From Paraspadella gotoi (lineage: Eukaryota; Animalia; Chaetognatha), in assembly GCA_051294375.1 (NCBI GenBank), contig CM119264.1, forward strand, positions 27,229,340-27,293,339: a stretch of DNA of 64,000 nt. The letters run 5' to 3'. Made by a program: the position numbers and the translations under genes. Below, piece by piece: positions 10,888-63,300 of this stretch. A model generated the notes under the pieces. That model was not told the DNA's origin and made no database searches. It saw only the letters and a list, made by a program, of their open reading frames with translations. How positions within the stretch are numbered: position 1 is the stretch's first letter; the number at the start of each line of letters is the position of its first letter.

Positions 10888-12831
<1,944 letters not shown>

Positions 12832-13183
12832 TTGTAGACTGACAAAATTGGGGCATCAAAAAAACCACTCAAAAAGCAAATAAACGTTACTTAATGAATA
12901 TCACCTGTTTCGTTGCTTATCATTCCAAATTTTCATTTATCGTTTTATTCGAATTTTGTAACTTTTATCATTTAAAAGTAAAGCAAAAAAAGATTGCTTT
13001 TTTTTCCTTACCAAATATTTTTTACTGCAGTCCCCAGTAGATTATTCTTCTTTCATCCTCATGACTTTTAATTAATATTAAAATTCACTTTTACGACATT
13101 TTGAATTTTACCTTTTGTTAACACAACTTTAGGCAGTTTTTGTAGTTTGTGGAAAACTAACGAAAAAACAACAACTATTCTAG

Positions 13184-15511
<2,328 letters not shown>

Positions 15512-27600: not shown

Positions 27601-29915
27601 GACGCTTCTCCGTCGTTCAAACGCCCCTTCAGGAAGACCGAAGCCGATTCTCTCGATGGTGGATCGCTTGATCTCGGATCCGCCACCTTTTCCGACTCGC
27701 ACGATTCCGCCAAACTCTTCAAGGTTTTGTTTTTATATTTTCCACATAATTTTAACATCTACATTTTACACATCTACAATTTCATATTTAGTTGGCGTTG
27801 CCCGCCCTTGACGAAGCCGCTTGCGACGGTTTGGACGACGACGACGAGCTGATGGGCCTCTGCTCTGGTTCTTTTGCCGAAAAATCGGTGGCGCCGGCGG
27901 TGGCATCCGAGGAGCCCCCGGCGCAGGCGGCGCCGCCTGCGCCGAGGCGAATCGAATCTTCAGACGAAGAAGGAAACCCAGAAGGAGAAAAGAGGAGGAA
28001 ATTAAAAAAGAAGAGAAAGAGAAGGAAAAAAGCCAAGACGGTGGAAAGCGACGGGGAGGAGGAAGAAAAAGAGGAAGATGGGGTCAGCGAGGAAGACGAA
28101 AAGAGCAGGGAATTGGACGGAGCGGAAGAAGAAGACGAGGAAGACGATGAACTTAAAGTTTTCATGAAGTTGTCACAGCAGAACCAAGGATTGTCAAAGA
28201 AGCTAAAGGCGAGTCATTTTTTAAAGATTTAATAATCCGGATCCTCTCTCTGATAGGGGACTTAATTTAGATTTTTAAAAGACTACATATACATAAAATT
28301 GGTTTTTACATGAACAGAAAAAGATACAGGCGAAAATTCGACGACGTTATTTCGAGAACGAGGCCGAGTTGAGCGGGAGCGAGGCCGGATCCGACGAGAA
28401 CGACGACTTGAAGGAAGAGGACGACGTGATGGAGGCGGAAGCGGGTTAGGAATGGAAACGTCATCTGGTTGACTCGATCGATTCGTCAAATCCTTTGCAT
28501 TTTCCCTTCAGGCGATCAGGACGAACTTCCCTCGGACGAAGAACTACTCCACCAGATTGGCGGCATTCACGCCAAACGGCTTCGTGACGAGGACGCCCGA
28601 CAGTTGAAAGTTATCCAGGACATCGTGCTCGAGGACGGGGATCTTGACGCCGATGGCGCGCAGGGCAGACTGCAAAATTTTAGGTCAGTTTTTTTGGATG
28701 TGTTTATTCGTTGATGAGCCGATGAACAAACTTTTTATTCGTCGTTTATTGGATGCGTTTATTCATTGATGAGCCGATGAACGAACCTTTTATTCATTGA
28801 TGAGCCGATGAACGAACCTTTTATTCATTGATGAGCAGATGAATGAACCTTTTATTCATTGATGAGCCGATGAAGGAACCTTTTATTCATTGATGAGCCG
28901 ATGAACGAACCTTTTATTCGTCGTTTCTTCACAGATGGAAAAACATCGACACGGGAGAGGACGACGGTGACGCCAGGGGAGACGACGAGGACGACGATGA
29001 CGAGGATCCTCTCGTGGCGACGGCAGAGGCGATCGAAGCTCAAAAGAAATGGAGGAAAATGCAGTTTGAACGAGAATTATGGCTAAAGGAAGTAAAGAGC
29101 AAAGAGGTGCTACGAAATACGAGGATGGTTTGCAGTCGATATTGCGATGCCAGAATGGAGGCATTTCTCAGAAATACGTAGTAGTCAGTACTCGCTTCCT
29201 CATCAGGGTAAAGAGAACGAGGCCACCGTCGATAATCTCCTCGACGGTTCTTCCTCTTCTCGTCTTCTCGTCGACGACGACGACGACAGTCAATTCATCC
29301 GTCTCGGTTCTAAGATTCTCGACGAATCCTCCAAATCGACTCCGATGCGGCAATTCTCTTCTCCCGCCGCCGCCAACAACGCCAATTCTCGTCAATCCTT
29401 GCCCTCCAAGTCTAGCGTCTCGTCCACCGAGAATAGTCAATCGCAGGACGCGTTCCTCCGCGCCGCAGCTTCTAGGTGTTTTTTTCTTTTTTCTTTTTTT
29501 TTAGAATGGGGGGAACCTAAATATTTTTTACTCGAACTGAAATCTTTTTGTTCACGTGATCCTTGGCTCGTAAATAGCTTGTTTTGTGGCCCTAAAGTCA
29601 TTTTCCTCTTAAACGTCAAGGTGCGGCTCTATCCTATCCAAAAACGGCGCCTCAGACTTTTTCTCGGCCAAGTCGTCGTCGGCCGCATCACGAGGCGCCT
29701 CCACCGCCCGCCCCTCCTCTGGCTCTAACTTCGCCTTCAAGACTCTGTCTCCGGTCAAACGCCCTCTGGAGGCGGAAGAGAAGAAGCGCAAGTGCGACGA
29801 GGCGGAGGGACAAAAAGTAGCCAAGCGGCCAAAGGGTCCCCCGAAGAAGACCGAATCCAAGGCGGAAAAGCCCAAACAAAAGAGCAACAGCATTTTTAGT
29901 CTGTTGAACTGTTAA
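21669..29915 (+). CDS. CLSPN: Claspin (replication checkpoint adaptor)
   Basis: IYSESQRLKREERMSLPYH, PGAKHEKLKEKL, repeated ExxxLCSGxF Chk1-binding motifs, FENEAELSGSE, DELPSDEEL, C-terminal SIFSLL. Large intron at about 25101-27598. Confidence 0.92.
25478..27041 (-). pseudogene. Decayed antisense coding remnant inside the large Claspin intron
   Basis: Minus-strand helical peptide DITENELAKTGAELYDNKDNILAKLNKRLDEAMALIQ, a 74-nt GT-AG intron (25577-25650), then IMNRECDQYRSEAQLIMKKLVDATADASSPEN*. Upstream parts have in-frame stops. Confidence 0.4.
27170..27385. repeat. 18-bp pyrimidine-rich tandem repeat (TTTCTATTCTTTCTTTCC)
   Basis: Direct reading; intronic. Confidence 0.9.
28703..28927. repeat. 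31-bp minisatellite (TTTTATTCATTGATGAGCCGATGAACGAACC), about 6 copies
   Basis: GAGC(C/A)GATG cores at 28716, 28771, 28802, 28833, 28864 and 28895, inside a Claspin intron. Confidence 0.92.
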
Positions 29916-38111: not shown

Positions 38112-39447
38112 ATGGCGTCGGCCCCTTGTGGCGATGAGATGGGCGACGGAGAACCCATGACGCCCAGTCTACAAAATGTCGTAGATCAAAAGTCGTTAAA
38201 ATGGATCTTCGTCGGTGGAAAAGGTCATTACTGATGGAAAAGCTGTCTCTAAACGTTAAAAAATGAATATATTTTGCTTCCCCAAATCAGGCGGCGTGGG
38301 AAAGACGACGTGCAGCTGCTCGCTGGCCGTCCAACTGTCTAAATTCCGCGAGCGCGTGCTCATCATCTCCACGGATCCTGCCCACAATATCTCCGACGCC
38401 TTCGACCAAAAGTTCTCTAAAGTGCCGATCCTCGTCAAGGGCTTTCAAAACCTGTGGGCGATGGAGATCGACCCCAGTCTCGGGTTCTCCGAACTCCCGG
38501 AGGAATACTTTGGCGCCGGCGAAGACGAGGAAAGGAACTTTTTCGCTCAGGGCAAACAAGTCATGCAGGTAAAACAAAAGGGTCTGTTTCTGAAGATGGC
38601 TCCGTGCTAAAAGTTTGGACGGTCAAAAAGCTTTCTTCAAATTTACCCAGGATCTCCTCGGCGCTTTTCCGGGCATCGACGAGGCCATGTCCTACGCGGA
38701 AGTGATGCGCCTCGTGAAGGGCATGAACTTTGACGTGGTAGTTTTCGACACGGCACCGACCGGCCACACCCTTCGCCTTCTTTCCTTTCCCTCCGTGGTG
38801 GAGAAGGGACTCGGAAAACTTTTGAAGCTCAAGTCCCAAGTTTCTCCCTTTGTTTCCAACGTGTCCAACCTGCTCGGACTCGGCGCCGACTCCTCCTTCA
38901 ACCCCGAGGAGATGACTTCTAAGTTGGAGGAGACGCTCCCTGTCATCCGCCAAGTCAACCAGCAGTTCCAGGATCCGAATCAGACCACTTTCGTTTGCGT
39001 CTGCATCGCCGAGTTCCTCTCCCTTTACGAGACGGAGAGGCTGGTGCAGGTTATTGTTATTATTTTAATTTCGATTGTTTTTGGTGTTGTTCTAGAATCT
39101 AAGACAACGTTCTTTTCATTTAAGGATTTGGCGAAGATGAACATCGACACGCGAAACATCGTCGTCAATCAGTTGTTATTTCCTCCACCCGGCGACAAAC
39201 CTTGCGGACTTTGCGCCGCCAGATGCAAGGTTGCGCTCAGTTTTCTATTGTTCTATTTTTCCAACAGCTTGTAATTGTAATCTTTTTTAAATTTGACCAG
39301 GTACAAGCAAAATACTTGGAACAGATTGAGGATCTTTACGAAGACTTTCATGTCACGAAACTTCCTCTTCTTGACCACGAAGTCAGAGGGACAGACCAAC
39401 TTTTGGAATTTTCCCAAAATTTGCTCAAACCTTATTCAAACGCGTGA
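38112..39447 (+). CDS. GET3: ATPase GET3/ASNA1
   Basis: [53 protein letters not shown], CxxC motif. Confidence 0.98.
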
Positions 39448-40320: not shown

Positions 40321-42363
40321 ATGGAATCTCTGCCGTCTGAAATTCTGGCGCTGATTTTTGCAAAACTGCCTCACCGAGATCTGGCCAGCGTCGAGCGAAC
40401 CTGCCGAATCTTTCGAAACTTTATCGTCGGGTCCGGTTTGTGGGTTCGACGCTTGAAGAGGATCGACGCCGCCGAACGCGAGCATTTGACGCGGCGATTG
40501 GAGGACTTCGTCCGTATTCCTCGAAGTCGATGGAACAACATGGAATCTGGCGTAGCCAAAACGGCCGTCATTCTGCTCGATTCGAAAATCAAAGAATTGG
40601 AGACGAACTGGAAGTTTAACAGACACACGCGGGCCTCGTTGCGAATACCGAAGGCGCAGGACCGAGCGCGGAGAATATACGTAGATTGGGTCGTCGGGAA
40701 GATCGTCATCCAATACTGCATGGCCAAGAGCGAGAAAGATCAAGGTCAAGCCGATGCGGAGGATGAAGACGAAGACGACGATGATGACGAAGATGGCGAC
40801 GGCGACTATTTCGACGACGTGAAGCCGAAATGGGTCGTAGTCTATGACCTTGCGGATTTTCGAGAGTTGGCGCGTTTCCAGACTAATTGTTTTCTACTCG
40901 GATTTGTTGACCCGAAGTTGGCGATAGCGGAATTTGACGAGAAAAATGTTCTCGTTTATATTTACGATCACGTGAGTGGAACGAAGAGAAAAGTCATTAA
41001 CCTTCAAGTTTGGTACCCAACGTTTTGTCAAGTCCTTTTTCGGAGCGAGCGAGTTTACGCTTGCAGAACGAATCCGAGTCAAATCTGCGCTTACGCCTGG
41101 GACAACGAGGAAGCCGTTGACGATGTTCGTCAAATCTTTCCCGCTGAGGACGATGAATCTCAATTCTTTCAAGAATTTTCCGTCGTTGACGATAAGTAGG
41201 AATTAGAAAGAGTTATCGAGGAAAGTTAAGAGTTTGTTTATATTATTTCTAAAATTAAGCGTTACGACTACAGGGACGATGGGACATTTGTTAGGGGTAT
41301 GAGGCATCTCTCGACAGCTGGCGCTCAGGGCTTTGGACCTGCGGTGACCACTTCATGTCACTGGTGTGTTTATACTGGTACCATCACACTTTAATCAGCA
41401 TGACCGAGAGGGGATTGAACCCGGAAGCGCCTACTTAGCTGTCCAAGCTATTTTGACAAGCTTAGTGAGACCAGAGGTTTGCCACACTACAATATTTAGC
41501 AACTGAATTGTGTGAATGTTGGGGACATCTATTACATTTCCTGAAGTCAACGAAGACCCGTTGAGGTCAGCGCTTATAATTCTCGATCCACACTTAGATT
41601 ATATGCGATCGTCGTCGACTTTCGCCTCCCGTTTATCAACGAGGGAGTCGGTCCCGGAGAATTTGTCGAGTACAGCGGACAAAAGGTCGTCGTAATCTTC
41701 CATCGCGCGACTGGCGCCGTTTTGCATCGGCTCTCTCAAAACAACATTTATGCCAACGTGTCGACGAAAGACATTTGGCAAGAAATCTCGCTGGCCGGAT
41801 CCTTTTTGGAAATCTCTTTGCTGCGAGCGGAGAATCGCAAGGCTGTCCGATCTCGGGTCATCAATCTCGCCGTCGAACCCGTAGGCTCCAAAGCCGCGTT
41901 TTTTCAGGGTCTCAACGGCTATGACTCGAAGCGATGGGTCGTGCGTAAACATTTGACCAACGCGGGCCGTTGCGTGACCGCGTTCATGAGAGCCGACTCC
42001 GCTTTCGAGGTCGGCCATGCATGCCTCACCGTTCTTAATCACGTTGTGTCGAGGGACATACCCAGATTCAACATCTTCCCCACTTTTATATTTATGAACG
42101 ATTTCGATTTGGTTCTGGTGTTCGACCATCATCCCCGGTTGACCCTGCTGCATTATAGTTTTCTGAAGATGGACTCCGGCGAGTCTTTGCGAGTTTGGGA
42201 ACGCTCGACTTGGACTAAGTTGAGCGAGCTCCGTTGGCTCGACTTGGCGCGCGGAGAGTCTTCTTTCAAAGATCCCAAGAAGATTCTTAGAGGAACCATC
42301 GATTACTTAAGAGTCGCCGATCGTCTTCGCTGGGTCAACTTGGAGAGCGACCGAGCCTCGTAA
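40321..42363 (+). CDS. F-box protein, two exons (intron 41196-41597)
   Basis: N-terminal F-box SLPSEILALIFAKLPHRDLASVERTCRIFR; frame kept across a GT-AG intron; C-terminus not recognised. Confidence 0.8.
41270..41490 (-). mobile_element. Twister-bearing SINE/retrozyme-like element, copy 1 (boundaries approximate)
   Basis: 41293-41424 is the reverse complement of 55118-55249 (132 nt ungapped, about 18 mismatches by hand count); contains B-box/T-loop-like GGTTCAATCC. Confidence 0.85.
41317..41399 (-). ncRNA. Type-P5 twister ribozyme fold, probably impaired
   Basis: Minus strand: GCUGAU-UAAA-GUGU-GA-UGG-[UACCAGUA]-UAA-ACAC-AC-P3-CAGG-UCCAAAGC-CCUG-A-GC-GCCAGC. T2 has AC in place of GC. Confidence 0.8.
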
Positions 42364-54300: not shown

Positions 54301-57300
54301 AAAAATATAATTTGACAGTTAAATTTAAAACATTCCAGGTAGAGGATTCTTTATCCAAAGATGTCGATTCTCTCCGCGACAAAATCCTCAGCGTTCCAGA
54401 AATGACTTCCCTCGTTGCGCCCCACGTTCTCTCTTCCGTTTTTCTGCAAGCGACTCTCGTCAAAACCATTTATAAATTTCGCGTCTTCGTCGATCCGAAA
54501 ACAACGTTCGATCCCGACGGCGCTCTCGCTGCTCCACTGCGTCGGCTTTTACAAGAAGCCGCCCCGATTCTTCATGATTTCGCGACATCCTTCGCCGAGG
54601 GAAACCGGAAGTCGGCCGAGAAGGCCGAGCCGATTCTAAGGAGTTTGATCGAGTTGTACGATGCGAGAGAAGAAGGCGTCGCCCAATTTCTCGCCGCCGT
54701 CATTCCCGATTCCATCACGACCGCTTGTCGGCGTTTCGTCGAATCGACACCGGATTCGGCGGCGTCTTCCTCGAAGCCCAAGCCCGCTAGCGGCGGCGGC
54801 TGCGAGGATGACGATCTCTGGGTAGCAGAAACGGACAAAGCCAACGCCTTCGCTGATCCCACCAACCTGAGATGTCATGCGGACGAACGGCGCCTTGACG
54901 TCTTTGCGAGGTCGTCGAGCGCCGCCTTCGAGCTTCTCGTGAAACATGAGGAATTGGAACGAAGGATCGGCCTCACGTCGCGCGACTCATTTTCCCGGAG
55001 ATTTTTCGAACCAGGCACGTCGTAAAATTGTTTTTAATTGAATCTTTATTGAATTAACAAGTATAATATGGTGGCGAATCCTAAATTCCTAAATCCTAAA
55101 TTCACCAACCGTGAGTCCAGGGTTCAATCCCCTCACGGTCACGTTGGTTAAAGTGTGATGGAGTCGGCATAAACACGCCAGTGACATGGGGTGGTCACTG
55201 CAGGTCCAAAGCCCTGAGCGCCCGCTGTCGGGAGAGGCCTCACACCCCTGCATCGCACATATCCCCCCGTTGCCATAGTATCAATTTTAAGTTTATGCTT
55301 TTTTACTTTTAGGTTTTTTCGATCCTTCCCGTTCGTTGAGCGTTGTGGCTTTGAAATCAACATTGAGTTCATCCGTCGACGCTGATTTGATCTTTGACGT
55401 TGATCTCGTTGGTTCGTTACTGAAGGCCGTTGGCGGCGTCTTCAAATTGAGTCTATTGGTATGCAATGAAACTCCGAGACTTGTTGAAAAGAATGATTTT
55501 GTAAATTAAACCCATCGTCACTTTAAGGATCAAACCATGTATACGGCTTGCATCGCTTTCGTTCATCACCTCATCGGCGTCATAGACCGACTGAGTGGCA
55601 AGGTTTTGCCGTCAAACGACGTAAACGCAATTAATGAAGAAAACCACGGTAGGTTTGCAACAACAATAAAAAAAAAATTGCTTCTCGCTACTTTTCTCCC
55701 AGCCTTGTTGCTTGTTTATTCAATGTATTCCTCGCGTATCGTACTTTAGTGACCCTCATCTTGATGACTGTGGTCAATTCGAGTCACCAGAGTATTTTCT
55801 TTTCCTGTAATCCTTGGCCCGCCGGGCAGTGGACCTCTTTGCTTACGCTTGACTTAGATTTCTTGGACAGATTCTCTCCGATGTCAAATTGATCTAGGAA
55901 GTCGTCACGTTTTTCCTCCGTCAAACTTTCGTCATCGTCATTGGAGCGGCTGTATCGCAACAAAAATGAAAATCTCCAGCGCTAAACGTTCTTCTGGCTA
56001 AAGCTTCAAATCTCTGAAGACAGATCGTGTTTAATACTATCAAACCCTGTCAATTTCGCATTCATTTCGAAATAAATCCTTTTTTTTTTTGTTTATCTTA
56101 ATTTTCACTGATAATTTTTTTCATTGGAAGACTGCAATGGCGAGCAACTTCCCAAAACCACCCGTTCTGTTGGGAGTTCCCGACGAACCAGTCGCATCCC
56201 CTCAAGACTCAAATTACACCACCACGAAATACGGAGGCGCCTGCGACCCAATTCCGCCTTTGACTCGCAGAGATTTCCGACGGTCCTGCCGAATTTGCGG
56301 GAGATCGTCTCAACTTATCTCTCAAATATATTGTCCCTGGTCAGAGAGTCCGTTTCACCGAACCATCTACCTCCTTGCCTGCACCCACCGCGACTGTTGG
56401 AACAAAGAAGAGGGTTGGGTGGCGTTGAGAGGTCAGGCGATTTCCGTCGATGTCGAATCACGAGTGACGACGGAAAAGAAAGCAGACATTTTCGAACTCG
56501 ACGATGAATGGGGAGACGAGGAAGATGACGCCGATGATATAGACTTCCCTTTGCGCAATTTGAGCTCAACTCGCGTGACTTTGCAAGATTCAGCCGTCGA
56601 CGAATCGGAAGACGTCGGTAATCGTCGTCAAGATAATTCCGAATCCGCCAAGATTTGCCAAGACGTCATCGAGGAAGGAAATGTGACGGAAGAGCATTTC
56701 CAGCCTTTTTACATGGCGTGCGTAGAAGATGAAGGAAGCCATGAAGTGACTGACGGTCATGTACAGCAACTTCTCATGAATTACAATCGCTCGGAAGGCG
56801 TTGCGGAGGACATAGCTTCTATGTTGGAGGACAAATGTCAGATCGATGGATTCGGCATCGAAAAATACGAGAAGGAAGTGGCGCGTCATGGCGACGCAGC
56901 CTTCCAGCGTTTCGTCGACACGATCGCCCGGAATCCCTCCCAGATTCTTCGATACTCGTTGGGCGGCGATCCGTTGTTGATGGAACCGATGTCGCAGGCG
57001 GTAGCGCCCTGTCAGAGTTGCGGATCAAAGCGAATTTTCGAGCTGCAACTTTTGCCGACGATGGTCAACTTTTTACGCGCCGACTCTGAACTATCCATCG
57101 ACTTTGGCACGGCTTTGGTCTTTTCTTGCGAAAAGTCTTGCTGGAACGTAGACGAATTGCGGCTCGTGGAAGAAAGGGTCGTTTTGCAATCGGAACCTGG
57201 GAGAGAATTTGTCATGGGAAACTAATTTTGATGACGGAACATTTTTGAATTTTCTAGTTGACCATTATTGAACAGGCTAATTTGACTTCGTTTAGAATAA

Positions 57301-60300: not shown

Positions 60301-63300
60301 TGCCGGACGTGGAGGACTTGTTGGAACAACTCAAAGAGAGGGAGGCTCAGTTCGTTTCCGAAGAAGATCAGAGATTAACGTTTTCTCTGTCGGAGCGTTT
60401 CTTTCCCTTTTTGCGACTCGCGAGGTTGGAAGATGGAGATCGAGAGAATCGCAGCTTTAACGGGGAAAGTGTTGCCGCGTTGGGTGAAGAGCGGTTCATG
60501 AGATTCGCCGATGCCGACAATCAAGGTTGTCAAGTGTATTTTAATAAAGGAGAAATTGCAACGTATATTAAATTATACTAAATTATTTTCTTGAATGAAA
60601 TTATAGATTTCGTGACTGTCCTCTGCAAATCGCTCTTGTCCTCGGGTTTAGTCCGAGAAGCGATCGTCTCCTCCTGCGACGAACTGCTCGACGTAGACTA
60701 CGACTTCGCCTTCCCTTTTCTTCCTCTCGTCGTGGAATCGGCGTTGAGCGGCGGCGAAGTGGATTCCAGTGCGCGGACTCTCCTCTCCGACCGGATCCGG
60801 GAATTCTTCGAGTCGGTGCCGAGTGAGAGTGGGACTCTGACGAGGAACGAGCGGAGAGCAACGGAGGCATTGCTCGGCGTCGTTGCGTACTTAAGACTGA
60901 GACAGCGCCCGCGTGTTGCCAGGTTTGTAGATGGATGACCTTTACAGAATCTGAGATTCGTTCTAACCAAATTTGTCGCATCCTCGCAGGTCGAGATCTT
61001 CCCCTCCTCCTTTCACCGACTGGGCCAACGAGTTTTGGCTCGAGTTGGATCACCTTTGCGTCTCCAAGGCTGCCCTCGCCTGTGGACAACCCTTTGCGGC
61101 AGTCATGTACTTGGAGTTGTGGGTAAAGCAACGACGAAAGAACGACGGCGTGGATGAAAATTCGCAGACGAAAAAGGATATTTTGAAAACGAATTCGGGG
61201 TAAGTGATTTTTATCTTGAAATAGAAAGTCCTTTACGTGGGCTTCGCGTGCGCAACTTATTTTTAAAAATACTGTGGTGGTATATTCACACCACCTCACG
61301 TCCACGATTCGTTCGGCCAATTACCATTGGCTCAGAGGGGGAACACACCATCCCAGGCCTTTTGTTCCATCCAAAGTCAAAACGACTTCCCTCTGCGTTG
61401 GCAAAGCGAGACCGTCCTAGGGTAACCGCGCCAGTGACTGGATGTATCACTGAGGGTCGGAAGCCCCCAAAGCCAACAGTGAGATGCCCCAACTCAATGG
61501 GCATCACAGGCAACCCGGCTGTTGCCATAATACTTTTTTTTTTGTAGATATTCTGGATCTGTGTCCTCTCATTTAAGCGCCGTATATGCTGCATTAGGGG
61601 AATCAGACTGTATTTATGGCTGTGGTTCCGAACTTGTAGCAAATCCCAAGGTAACTTTGCTGTGAATCCAGAATTTGCCTTTTTCTTACTTAAACCATAT
61701 CTATTCTTACATAGGACGCCGTTTCGCTTTACATTTTTGAGAAAAAGTGGGATTCGGCGGCGTCCTCGGCCAACTGCCTTCCTCCCCATGACGCCGCGGC
61801 GCCCCTCGCCAAGTCACTCGTCAACCTCAACCTCCCTAACGTCGCTTTCGATTTTCTGAGTCGAGCCGCGAATTCTTCCCGACTTTGCGCCGAAGAGTCG
61901 GAGATTTTTTACGAGAGCGCCATCAAGCTTTCCAAGTGGAACCTGGACATCGTTCGAAGTCAGTCTAGGTATGTCTAGGTGTGACAATATCAAGACTCGA
62001 GAATGACATTTTTCATCTGTTATTTTTAATAATTTTTTTTTCCTTTAAACAGCAAAGGCGCTTCTTCGAAGGCTCCTCCATTTTATCAGTGCATCTACAA
62101 TTGCCTCTCCGGAATAAAGATCGGAAACCTTCGAGCGGTGGAGGAGTTCGAAGGAGTGGCGATCCAGTCTCTCTTGGAAGATGTCAAGGCCTCGTCTCAT
62201 AGCATTCACTCGGTCAATCCCATCTTGACCAAAGCTAAAACATTCATGGTAATGGAACGATAGTGTTTTTCCAATTTTTCTTTTATTTTAATTTGTACGT
62301 TTCTTGGTGCAGGATATTTGCGAGCTACGTCGTTTGGCAATTGATCCCACGACGACGCCTTTGGAGTGGCGTTCCCTCGCCACAGCTTGGAAGGCGGACT
62401 GCGATTCCCTTCGGCGTCAAGACTTTTCAGTGGCCGACAAAATTATCGCCGTCAGGCTGGCCTGTTCCGATGCGGTTGAGAGGATCGTCGAGTCGTCCTT
62501 TTCTGACTCTCGCGAGAATTTTTCTAATTCGTGGCGCCGAGAGAAGTTGAAACTAGTCTTCGATCTCTGCAAAATCTCTCGAGATCAGGGATGGCATCAC
62601 GCGTCGAAAGGAGCCTTCGCCAGGCTTGGCCAGATGCTTGAGGAGGATCAAGGGGCGAGCCTTGTCCCTTACTGGGAGTTGGAGGAGCCTTCTCTCTATT
62701 GGGAAATGGGGGAAGAGGAAAAGGCTAAGTTTTTGTTAAGAAGAGTCATCGAGGGAGAGACGAAGAGCCAATCTACGCGACTCGTCGTCCCCCTGGCGCT
62801 GAACACGATGGGAGCCTGGCTTTCCGAAAGTAATATGGCGAGGTAAGTCTGGTTCATTCGCGGTTTCGCTTTAGTTTTCCTCAATTGTCGAATCTCTTTC
62901 TTAGTTCCACGACGATCAACGACGACTATCTGCAACGCTCCGTGGATATGTTAAAGCAGACCTCGGCACTCTACGAATCAAAGTCGGACAAAGAAATCCT
63001 CAGTCGCATCCACTTGACCGTGGCCAAGTTCGCCGACGCAGAGTATCAGAGTATCAAGGATTACATGGAGAGCAGTCTCTACGCGGAGAAGCGACAGATC
63101 ATGTCCGAACAAGAGGCAGAACTAGAGGGGTTGATACCCTTGCGCGGCTCGCTCGGAAAAGGTAAACTGAAATCGGCAAATGTACTCATCTGCTGATTTT
63201 TAGATTCTATCGACCAATATTTTTTGTTCTCCTCTTTGGGCAGACGATCAAAAATACCTGACTATCATGAAGAGGACCCGCGACCAAGACGCGAAGGCCG

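Follow-up and report, generated by a model that had tools for sequence, protein, structure and literature searches.

The 64,000-nucleotide window analysed here (Paraspadella gotoi, contig CM119264.1, positions 27,229,340 to 27,293,339), a stretch of intron-rich animal DNA, contains a type-P5 twister ribozyme pattern with a P3 hairpin at 61397–61477 of the plus strand (copy B), embedded in a short repeat, element B, within an intron of an ATM-like gene. A selected twister fold in the family of copy B is very probable, and element B is almost certainly a mobile multi-copy repeat. We favour a reading, to which as a whole chain we assign a probability of about 0.4, in which element B would be a short, non-autonomous retroelement of the Penelope/Naiad type whose predicted twister would cut efficiently mainly as a dimer paired through its P1 segment. 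This reading is favoured because of the twister pattern itself, its conservation within the family, the multi-copy repeat with its flanking ATAC, the self-complementary P1 and the palindromic P1 segments of Naiad elements.

The search patterns were built with the customary helix names and core letters of twister ribozymes. Read 5' to 3', copy B consists of GUUGGC (P5), AAA, GCGA (P2'), GA, CCG (T1'), the 8-nt segment UCCUAGGG, UAA, CCGC (P2), GC, the 21-nt P3 hairpin, AGGG (P4), U, CGG (T1), AAGC, CCCC (P4'), AAA and GCCAAC (P5'), with the P5 strands at 61397–61402 and 61472–61477, GA at 61410–61411, UAA at 61423–61425 and GC at 61430–61431. The helices and fixed letters that an earlier note, made from the sequence of this DNA, had quoted for 61397–61477 were each found in place, including the perfect P5 pairing. 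By analogy with the U-A site in the UAA loop (PMC8501958), cleavage is predicted between U61423 and A61424. A P1 hairpin, expected of a type-P5 twister, was not found in copy B, where P1 comprises 8 nt without a stable hairpin; copy B is a variant of the class, as P1 is conserved but inessential in tested twisters.

Two further copies of the pattern lie in the window, A on the same strand near 55.2 kb and C at 41317–41399 on the minus strand; the earlier note had omitted the latter, as well as the 8-nt palindromic P1. The core letters (UAA, GC, U-NNN-AAGC and GA) occur in permuted order, and A and B retain every core and pseudoknot letter, whereas copy C lacks the G of T2 (GC to AC). Since this residue (G13) is one of four positions at which any change abolished activity (PMC5113685), copy C is likely dead. 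Over the three copies, the 3-bp T1 pseudoknot was paired in 9/9 cells with two two-sided changes, and the 2-bp T2 pseudoknot in 5/6, copy C being the miss; P2 and P4 were paired at 3/4 positions each in B and at 4/4 in A and C.

In line with the compensatory changes proposed in the earlier note, copy A carries ACAC/GUGU in P2, CCA/UGG in T1 and CAGG/CCUG in P4 in the same order, so that B differs from A in these helices by four two-sided changes (two in T1, one each in P2 and P4) and by two A.C mismatches. In the full tally, 76 of 84 cells were paired and 6 of 28 pairs had changed on both sides; this is a tally over only two independent families, without a covariation statistic or significance test, and is suggestive. 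BLASTN gave no match of B to A or C, while A and C are 87% identical over a central 130 nt, the only part that they have in common, and one twister model fits all three. The view that structure rather than sequence was kept, and that at least two ribozyme-bearing families exist, therefore holds.

A loose descriptor gave 0.19 matches per shuffled window, with at least one match in 55 of 300 shuffles, and is thus weak proof by itself. With the P3 stem required, three real matches were obtained in the window, compared to 8 in 800 shuffles (0.01 per shuffled window). We regard as stronger support for the fold, above the two-sided changes, an independent covariance model built solely from phage and prokaryote type-P5 twisters, whose top three of seven matches in the window were A (E 0.00034), B (0.0024) and C (0.0074), followed by one at 1.2; the calibration of these E-values is rough. 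The comparison set behind this model was limited to T1 types CCC, CAC and CCA, the CAC scan covering 33/64 parts. Of 202 cores collected, 34 paired poorly in P2/P4 and were removed; merging of duplicates then brought the set to 132 unique sequences. Twenty-three of the phage and prokaryote twisters combine P3 with the P5 permutation, and 15 of these entered the model after exclusion of 5 near-duplicates and 3 misaligned rows. As a separate observation, type-P5 twisters occur in groups of two to four, at distances of a few hundred bases, in single phage contigs (L179, L201, L219, L222 and L226).

Among 125 loci (5 viral and 120 metagenomic, the metagenome scan covering 60/64 parts) that matched only the fixed letters of an 8-nt-P1 pattern, none formed the T1, P2 and P4 pairs, and 10 read as type-P1 twisters. 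A family-specific pattern returned no viral loci. An Rfam scan of the whole window, at E up to 1, returned no twister match; partial twister-P1 matches appeared in a 361-base stretch with B (16.2 bits, E 1.1; gathering threshold 67.2) and, also below threshold, in a short stretch with A (E 0.045). An Rfam family assignment was accordingly dropped, as none reached threshold. No hammerhead was matched in the Rfam scans of the whole window and the short stretch. Minimum-energy folding, which misses the pseudoknotted fold, gave z values of −1.67 (B), −0.38 (A) and +0.27 (C). Self-cofolding of the whole ribozyme, which ignores pseudoknots and returned the swapped arrangement for C only, was not counted.

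Variation within the family of copy B was followed across 61392–61482 (91 places) in four runs, with differences listed from 1% upwards. Only six places varied: 61427 and 61429, where C to T changes at about 1% retain G.U pairs; 61439, in a loop; and 61443, 61445 and 61446, in P3, where the window copy departs from the family majority. The earlier note had taken the A.C mismatches at 61409 and 61453 for G-to-A decay after insertion. This did not hold up, as neither position showed another letter at 1% in any of the four runs. The mismatches are the family's own state, and the real post-insertion changes of copy B are the three in P3; the proposed repair (A61409G, A61453G) would therefore yield a form absent from the family. 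Natural twisters tolerate mismatches in P2 and P4 well, save at the loop-adjacent P4 pair (PMC11662667), which is intact in copy B.

The P1 segment likewise showed no alternative letter at 1% in the four runs. It is exactly 8 nt long in all three window copies. This contrasted with the phage and prokaryote set, in which the patterns permitted P1 lengths of 4–30 nt and none came out at 8: in 131 of the 132 unique matches P1 spans 11–30 nt, the remaining one, of 3 nt, reading as a type-P1 twister, and with few exceptions P1 there folds into a stable hairpin (median −13.4 kcal/mol). Self-duplex energies were −11.0 kcal/mol over 8 letters for B, −9.3 over 6 for A and a weak −0.8 for C, and 0.9% of random 8-mers pair at least as well as B and 2.5% at least as well as A. 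Alone, the segments had a monomer energy of 0, a 2-bp hairpin being unfavourable by +2.2 to +2.7 kcal/mol (B +2.7). Both B (UA) and A (CG) have a self-complementary dinucleotide at the centre. Hammerheads of Penelope-like elements (PLEs) and of amphibians with a 1–2-bp helix III and a palindromic loop act as dimers (PMC4209133, PMC7229834), a design that the palindromic P1 may mirror. A strong gain in cleavage from dimerisation via P1 would stand at about even odds or just below.

Element B fills 257 of the 348 bases of its host intron, which is spliced, a contig of run X9 spanning the junction. The exons adjoining and downstream of it match human ATM (E 0.00066 and 0.0075), Pfam gave no match on the ATM exon pieces, and the ATM call depends on the human matches. 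Elements B and A are both sense-oriented in introns of this gene. The 3' end of B reads GTTGCCATA up to 61529; other GTTGCCATA matches (22635 and 23336) and an apparent element at 38127–38768 were set aside as chance. The ATAC/ATAC duplication flanking B agrees with the 4-bp target-site duplication of long terminal repeat (LTR) retrozymes, the flanks of A and C being less clean.

In three DNA runs, to which 6742, 2058 and 1897 contigs aligned in this region, summed contig depth rose from 25–101 on the flanks to 0.4–1.3 million over the ribozyme. Summed contig depth is not a measure of copy number, since overlap between contigs could raise it by as much as about 30-fold; a genomic copy number at least in the hundreds is a safe statement. 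Contigs depart at 61529–61532 into unrelated A/T-rich flanks (in run X3, 76 at 61529, 70 at 61530 and 48 at 61532). Within the element, X3 showed summed depths of 0.34 million at the 5' extremity and then 0.75 and 1.28 million across the ribozyme, the kind of slope that 5'-truncated copies would produce. In run X9, which we guess to be RNA, depth relative to the three DNA runs rose by about 40–70% across 61423/61424; this was not counted as cleavage, since contigs cannot show ends. The same run also contained a 1998-base contig of depth 214 with a family-B copy near one end, this copy possibly lying within an untranslated region of another transcript.

A link to Naiads, a group of PLEs, came from their published consensuses: 2 of 54 (Craig et al. 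2021 supplement, PMC8557442) carry a type-P5 twister with a palindromic P1 near the 3' end. Both were found by a non-exhaustive search with 35 short words and parsed by eye. In Naiad_Mley, P5, P2, T1, T2 and P4 are all perfect, and P1 contains two palindromes of 8 bp (GACGCGUC and AAUCGAUU). In Naiad-1_Movir (so identified by file order, as the entry before Naiad-2_Movir), P5, T1 and P4 are perfect, P2 is loose and the palindrome reads GGGUACCC. Nowhere does the text of PMC8557442 use the word 'twister'. According to that source, Naiads are without hammerheads, are often 5'-truncated and prefer TA-rich sites, and one of them has a 4-bp CATA duplication. Element B is compatible with this in its lack of a tail, its A/T-rich flanks, its 4-bp duplication and the lower depth at its 5' end. 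As it has no endonuclease–reverse transcriptase (EN-RT) open reading frame (ORF), B can only be a non-autonomous or truncated Penelope-like copy, and the chances that a Penelope/Naiad-type partner mobilises it are about evenly balanced.

In the favoured reading, a transcript with two copies, in tandem or as a pseudo-LTR, would allow its two UCCUAGGG segments to form a single 8-bp helix, each active site being composed of P2', the catalytic G and T1' of one copy together with UAA, P2, P3 and P4 of the other. Both copies would then be cut at U|AA and a unit-length RNA released, which a Penelope-like reverse transcriptase/GIY-YIG endonuclease would copy into A/T-rich DNA. A lone sense copy, as in the ATM intron, would cut poorly, and the host pre-mRNA would be spared. 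In its most specific form this would be a 'twister retrozyme', a short Naiad parasite with a domain-swapped dimeric twister joined by a loop-less palindromic P1 and cutting tandem transcripts only, a proposal that we hold to be doubtful.

Several observations weigh against the favoured reading, and some of them lead to the most credible of the alternatives. On the side of the element, a twister was seen in only 2 of 54 Naiad consensuses in the non-exhaustive search, and B, at 257 bp, has no EN-RT ORF of the kind that defines PLEs, no reverse-transcriptase-like ORF having been noticed around it. Its short inverted ends and 4-bp duplication fit LTR or DNA elements too, and the depth slope may instead reflect divergence of this copy itself at 61303–61323. 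Possible tandem copies of the family were seen as three joints at which a contig goes back, each in a single contig, and in the case of one PLE, insertion in vitro did not require hammerhead cleavage (PMC11167929). On the side of the ribozyme, a pattern for phage type-P5 twisters with T1 CGG/CCG gave three loci, none of which paired in P2. The arms of any hairpin self-pair, so that the central dinucleotide alone separates dimer from hairpin; chance would produce it in two families at about 1/16. Further, P1 was dispensable or very tolerant in tested twisters, being inessential (PMC5113685) and its imperfections not lowering cleavage (PMC11662667), so that a single copy might be active with a stem of 2 bp and a CUAG loop. 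The same mobile repeat could thus hold a real twister that cuts as a monomer, with P1 as a 2-bp stem under a CUAG-type loop and the palindrome incidental; intronic copies would be tolerated because splicing outpaces cutting, or because cuts in introns do little harm. The intact core and pseudoknot letters of A and B would suit such a monomer, as would the centre of copy C, which breaks the palindrome, whereas the unfavourable 2-bp hairpin would not. Also set against it are the 131/131 phage and prokaryote type-P5 twisters in which P1 keeps at least 11 nt, the self-complementarity of B over all 8 nt and the palindromic P1 segments of Naiads. We consider monomeric cutting unlikely, if the least so of the alternatives.

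The remaining alternatives concern the nature of the repeat, and we judge all of them improbable. A clean A box and B box of RNA polymerase III (Pol III), which by consensus lie 30–60 bp apart, occur at a workable spacing in no element. An A-box-like TGGCTCAGAGG is found at 61328 in B, an element that is followed by a T-run, and a B-box-like GGTTCAATCC at 55121 (A) and 41421 (C), so that partial boxes fall in different families; the A-box pattern also matches four other window sites, no tRNA was called, and there is no A-rich or repeat tail. A Pol III short interspersed element (SINE), moved by a long interspersed element (LINE) and with a twister in the place of a hammerhead, would have its precedent in Schistosoma Sm-alpha (PMC6765202) and is the least probable account. 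Slightly less remote is an origin as a solo LTR, from an animal equivalent of the plant LTR retrozymes with a twister replacing the hammerhead and mobilised by a Ty3/gypsy integrase: the flush 4-bp duplication, the TG start and the inverted ends TRTGG/CCATA common to A and B speak for it, and plant retrozyme LTRs are 300–400 bp long, bear a ribozyme, make 4-bp duplications and occur solo (PMC4918200). Element B ends in TA, not CA, however, the loose ends at its 3' side are heterogeneous and A/T-rich (agreement 0.42–0.50) with no primer-binding site among those listed, depth drops toward the 5' end, and the rule TRTGG..CCAYA plus 4 bp matches a GET3 coding sequence by chance. Between these two in probability stands a miniature inverted-repeat DNA transposon or dead relic, in which the twister pattern would be a passenger without a present role. 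It is compatible with the inverted ends, which are imperfect over 9 bp, and with a short duplication; two A.C mismatches are fixed, and the uniformity of the family could stem from a single recent burst instead of selection. Against this, it takes G.T pairs for the inverted ends to match, the 5' end is under-represented, and two families unrelated in sequence have retained every catalytic letter and the two pseudoknots by way of two-sided changes.

The features of the three elements are collected in Table 1. Two F-box gene ORF pieces flank element C, which has the antisense orientation. Immediately 5' of the ribozyme, A (55110–55143) and C (41400–41432) both have a hairpin of T-loop type (GGG-TTCAAT-CCC) set on a longer stem; it is absent from B and could be a B-box-like or docking motif. 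The loop of the 5' hairpin of element A (55080–55103) contains short, telomere-like CCTAAAT(T) repeats.

Table 1. Features of the three twister-bearing elements in the window (positions in the window)
Feature	Position	Strand	Basis or remark
Type-P5 twister ribozyme pattern with P3	61397..61477	+	Descriptors, pair tally, covariance model
P3 hairpin	61432..61452	+	Differs from family majority at 61443, 61445 and 61446; one stem pair lost
P1 segment UCCUAGGG, 8 nt, fully self-complementary	61415..61422	+	Duplex and hairpin energies; no stable hairpin alone
Element B, 257-bp multi-copy repeat, TGTGG...CCATA, without poly(A), no ORF seen	61273..61529	+	Contig depth, end reading
ATAC, left direct-repeat copy, 4 bp, likely target-site duplication	61269..61272	+	Sequence
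ATAC, right direct-repeat copy, 4 bp	61530..61533	+	Sequence; 3' end fixed independently by contigs
5'-terminal hairpin GGTGG...CCACC	61276..61295	+	Sequence
Two hairpins between ribozyme and 3' end (61483–61505, 61509–61526)	61483..61526	+	Folding
GT-AG intron of ATM-like gene, 348 bp (87 bp without element B)	61200..61547	+	Run X9 contig joins across
Element A, 211 bp, TATGG...GTTGCCATA; twister 55143–55225; P1 AGUCGGCA	55067..55277	+	Ends from sequence only
Likely GC-AG intron around element A, starts GCACGT	55015..55312	+	Reading frame only
Element C, about 214 bp; twister 41317–41399; P1 UACCAGUA; flanking TGTAG direct repeats	41273..41486	-	Ends chosen from the repeat itself

Elsewhere in the window, an intronless PDCD2L-like ORF (Pfam PF04194) lies at 56134–57225 on the plus strand, the same strand as the exons of the ATM-like gene among which it is found. 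For the window's DDX56 and GET3 proteins the best named matches are from animals, with at most 76% and 81%, respectively; other matches come closer, at 83–88%. Two adjacent WD40 gene copies at 11123–14951, which from their translation we take to be RBBP4/7-like, are 79–88% alike in exon blocks, and a 31-bp tandem repeat of about 6 copies, 96–99% alike, occupies 28703–28950.

Twisters are chemically well studied, and few have a known job. If the favoured reading is true, hundreds to thousands of lone sense copies could sit in host introns without destroying pre-mRNA, so that the tolerance of sense intronic copies would be explained. The element would then be the twister counterpart of the dimeric PLE hammerheads, having arisen independently in a second ribozyme class, and hammerheads and twisters would have evolved the same copy-counting switch. 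The gap left by the hammerhead-less Naiads would likewise be filled, and a twister gated by concentration or by tandem arrangement would be a useful switch. Should the ribozyme act as a monomer instead, the find would be of modest interest: a type-P5 twister of compact form, overlooked by Rfam, in an animal repeat that is new.

The type-P5 class is reportedly due to Roth et al. (2014). Copy B has the segment order of described type-P5 twisters (PMC10085705, PMC6765202; Rfam clan CL00120), P2'-GA-T1'-P1-UAA-P2-GC-P3-P4-U-T1-AAGC-P4', with an open P5 and both pseudoknots; it differs in that its P1 is an 8-nt loop-less near-palindrome instead of an 11–30-nt hairpin, in its two fixed A.C mismatches and its sub-threshold Rfam score, and in sitting in an animal repeat. 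In the literature accessible to us, no description was found of a natural twister that is dimeric or has a palindromic P1, or of a twister in PLEs or retrozymes.

With the dimeric PLE hammerheads and the non-LTR retrozymes (PMC4209133, PMC7229834, bioRxiv 10.64898/2026.07.22.740005), element B shares the format of a short non-coding animal repeat with a ribozyme; these systems, too, have dispersed monomers and no poly(A), and the helix beside their cut site has 1–2 bp and a palindromic loop. Their tandem type I hammerheads define the non-LTR retrozymes, whereas the ribozyme of B is a twister; the duplication of B is 4 bp, compared to longer ones in retrozymes, and B is known here from dispersed copies in contigs while the retrozymes are known from tandem arrays and circular RNA. 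Plant LTR retrozymes (PMC4918200) resemble B in having a ribozyme within a unit of about 300 bp, a 4-bp duplication and solo copies; theirs is a type III hammerhead, accompanied by a primer-binding site and a polypurine tract, none of which was seen in B. The Schistosoma LINE Perere-3, of the RTE type, is another animal retroelement that holds a twister whose P1 is weak (PMC8501958). That ribozyme belongs to type P1, occupies the 5' end of an element that is itself autonomous, and cuts at the duplication; the one in B belongs to type P5 and lies inside an element lacking an ORF, 150 nt from the 5' end. Finally, the Naiads (PMC8557442) share with B a high copy number and, in the two consensuses described above, a type-P5 twister with a palindromic P1. 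They measure 3.4–4.4 kb with an EN-RT ORF, and in a comparison by short words no sequence match of the 257-bp B to a Naiad was found; what is new here is the short, ORF-less, multi-copy form, with data at the level of the family.

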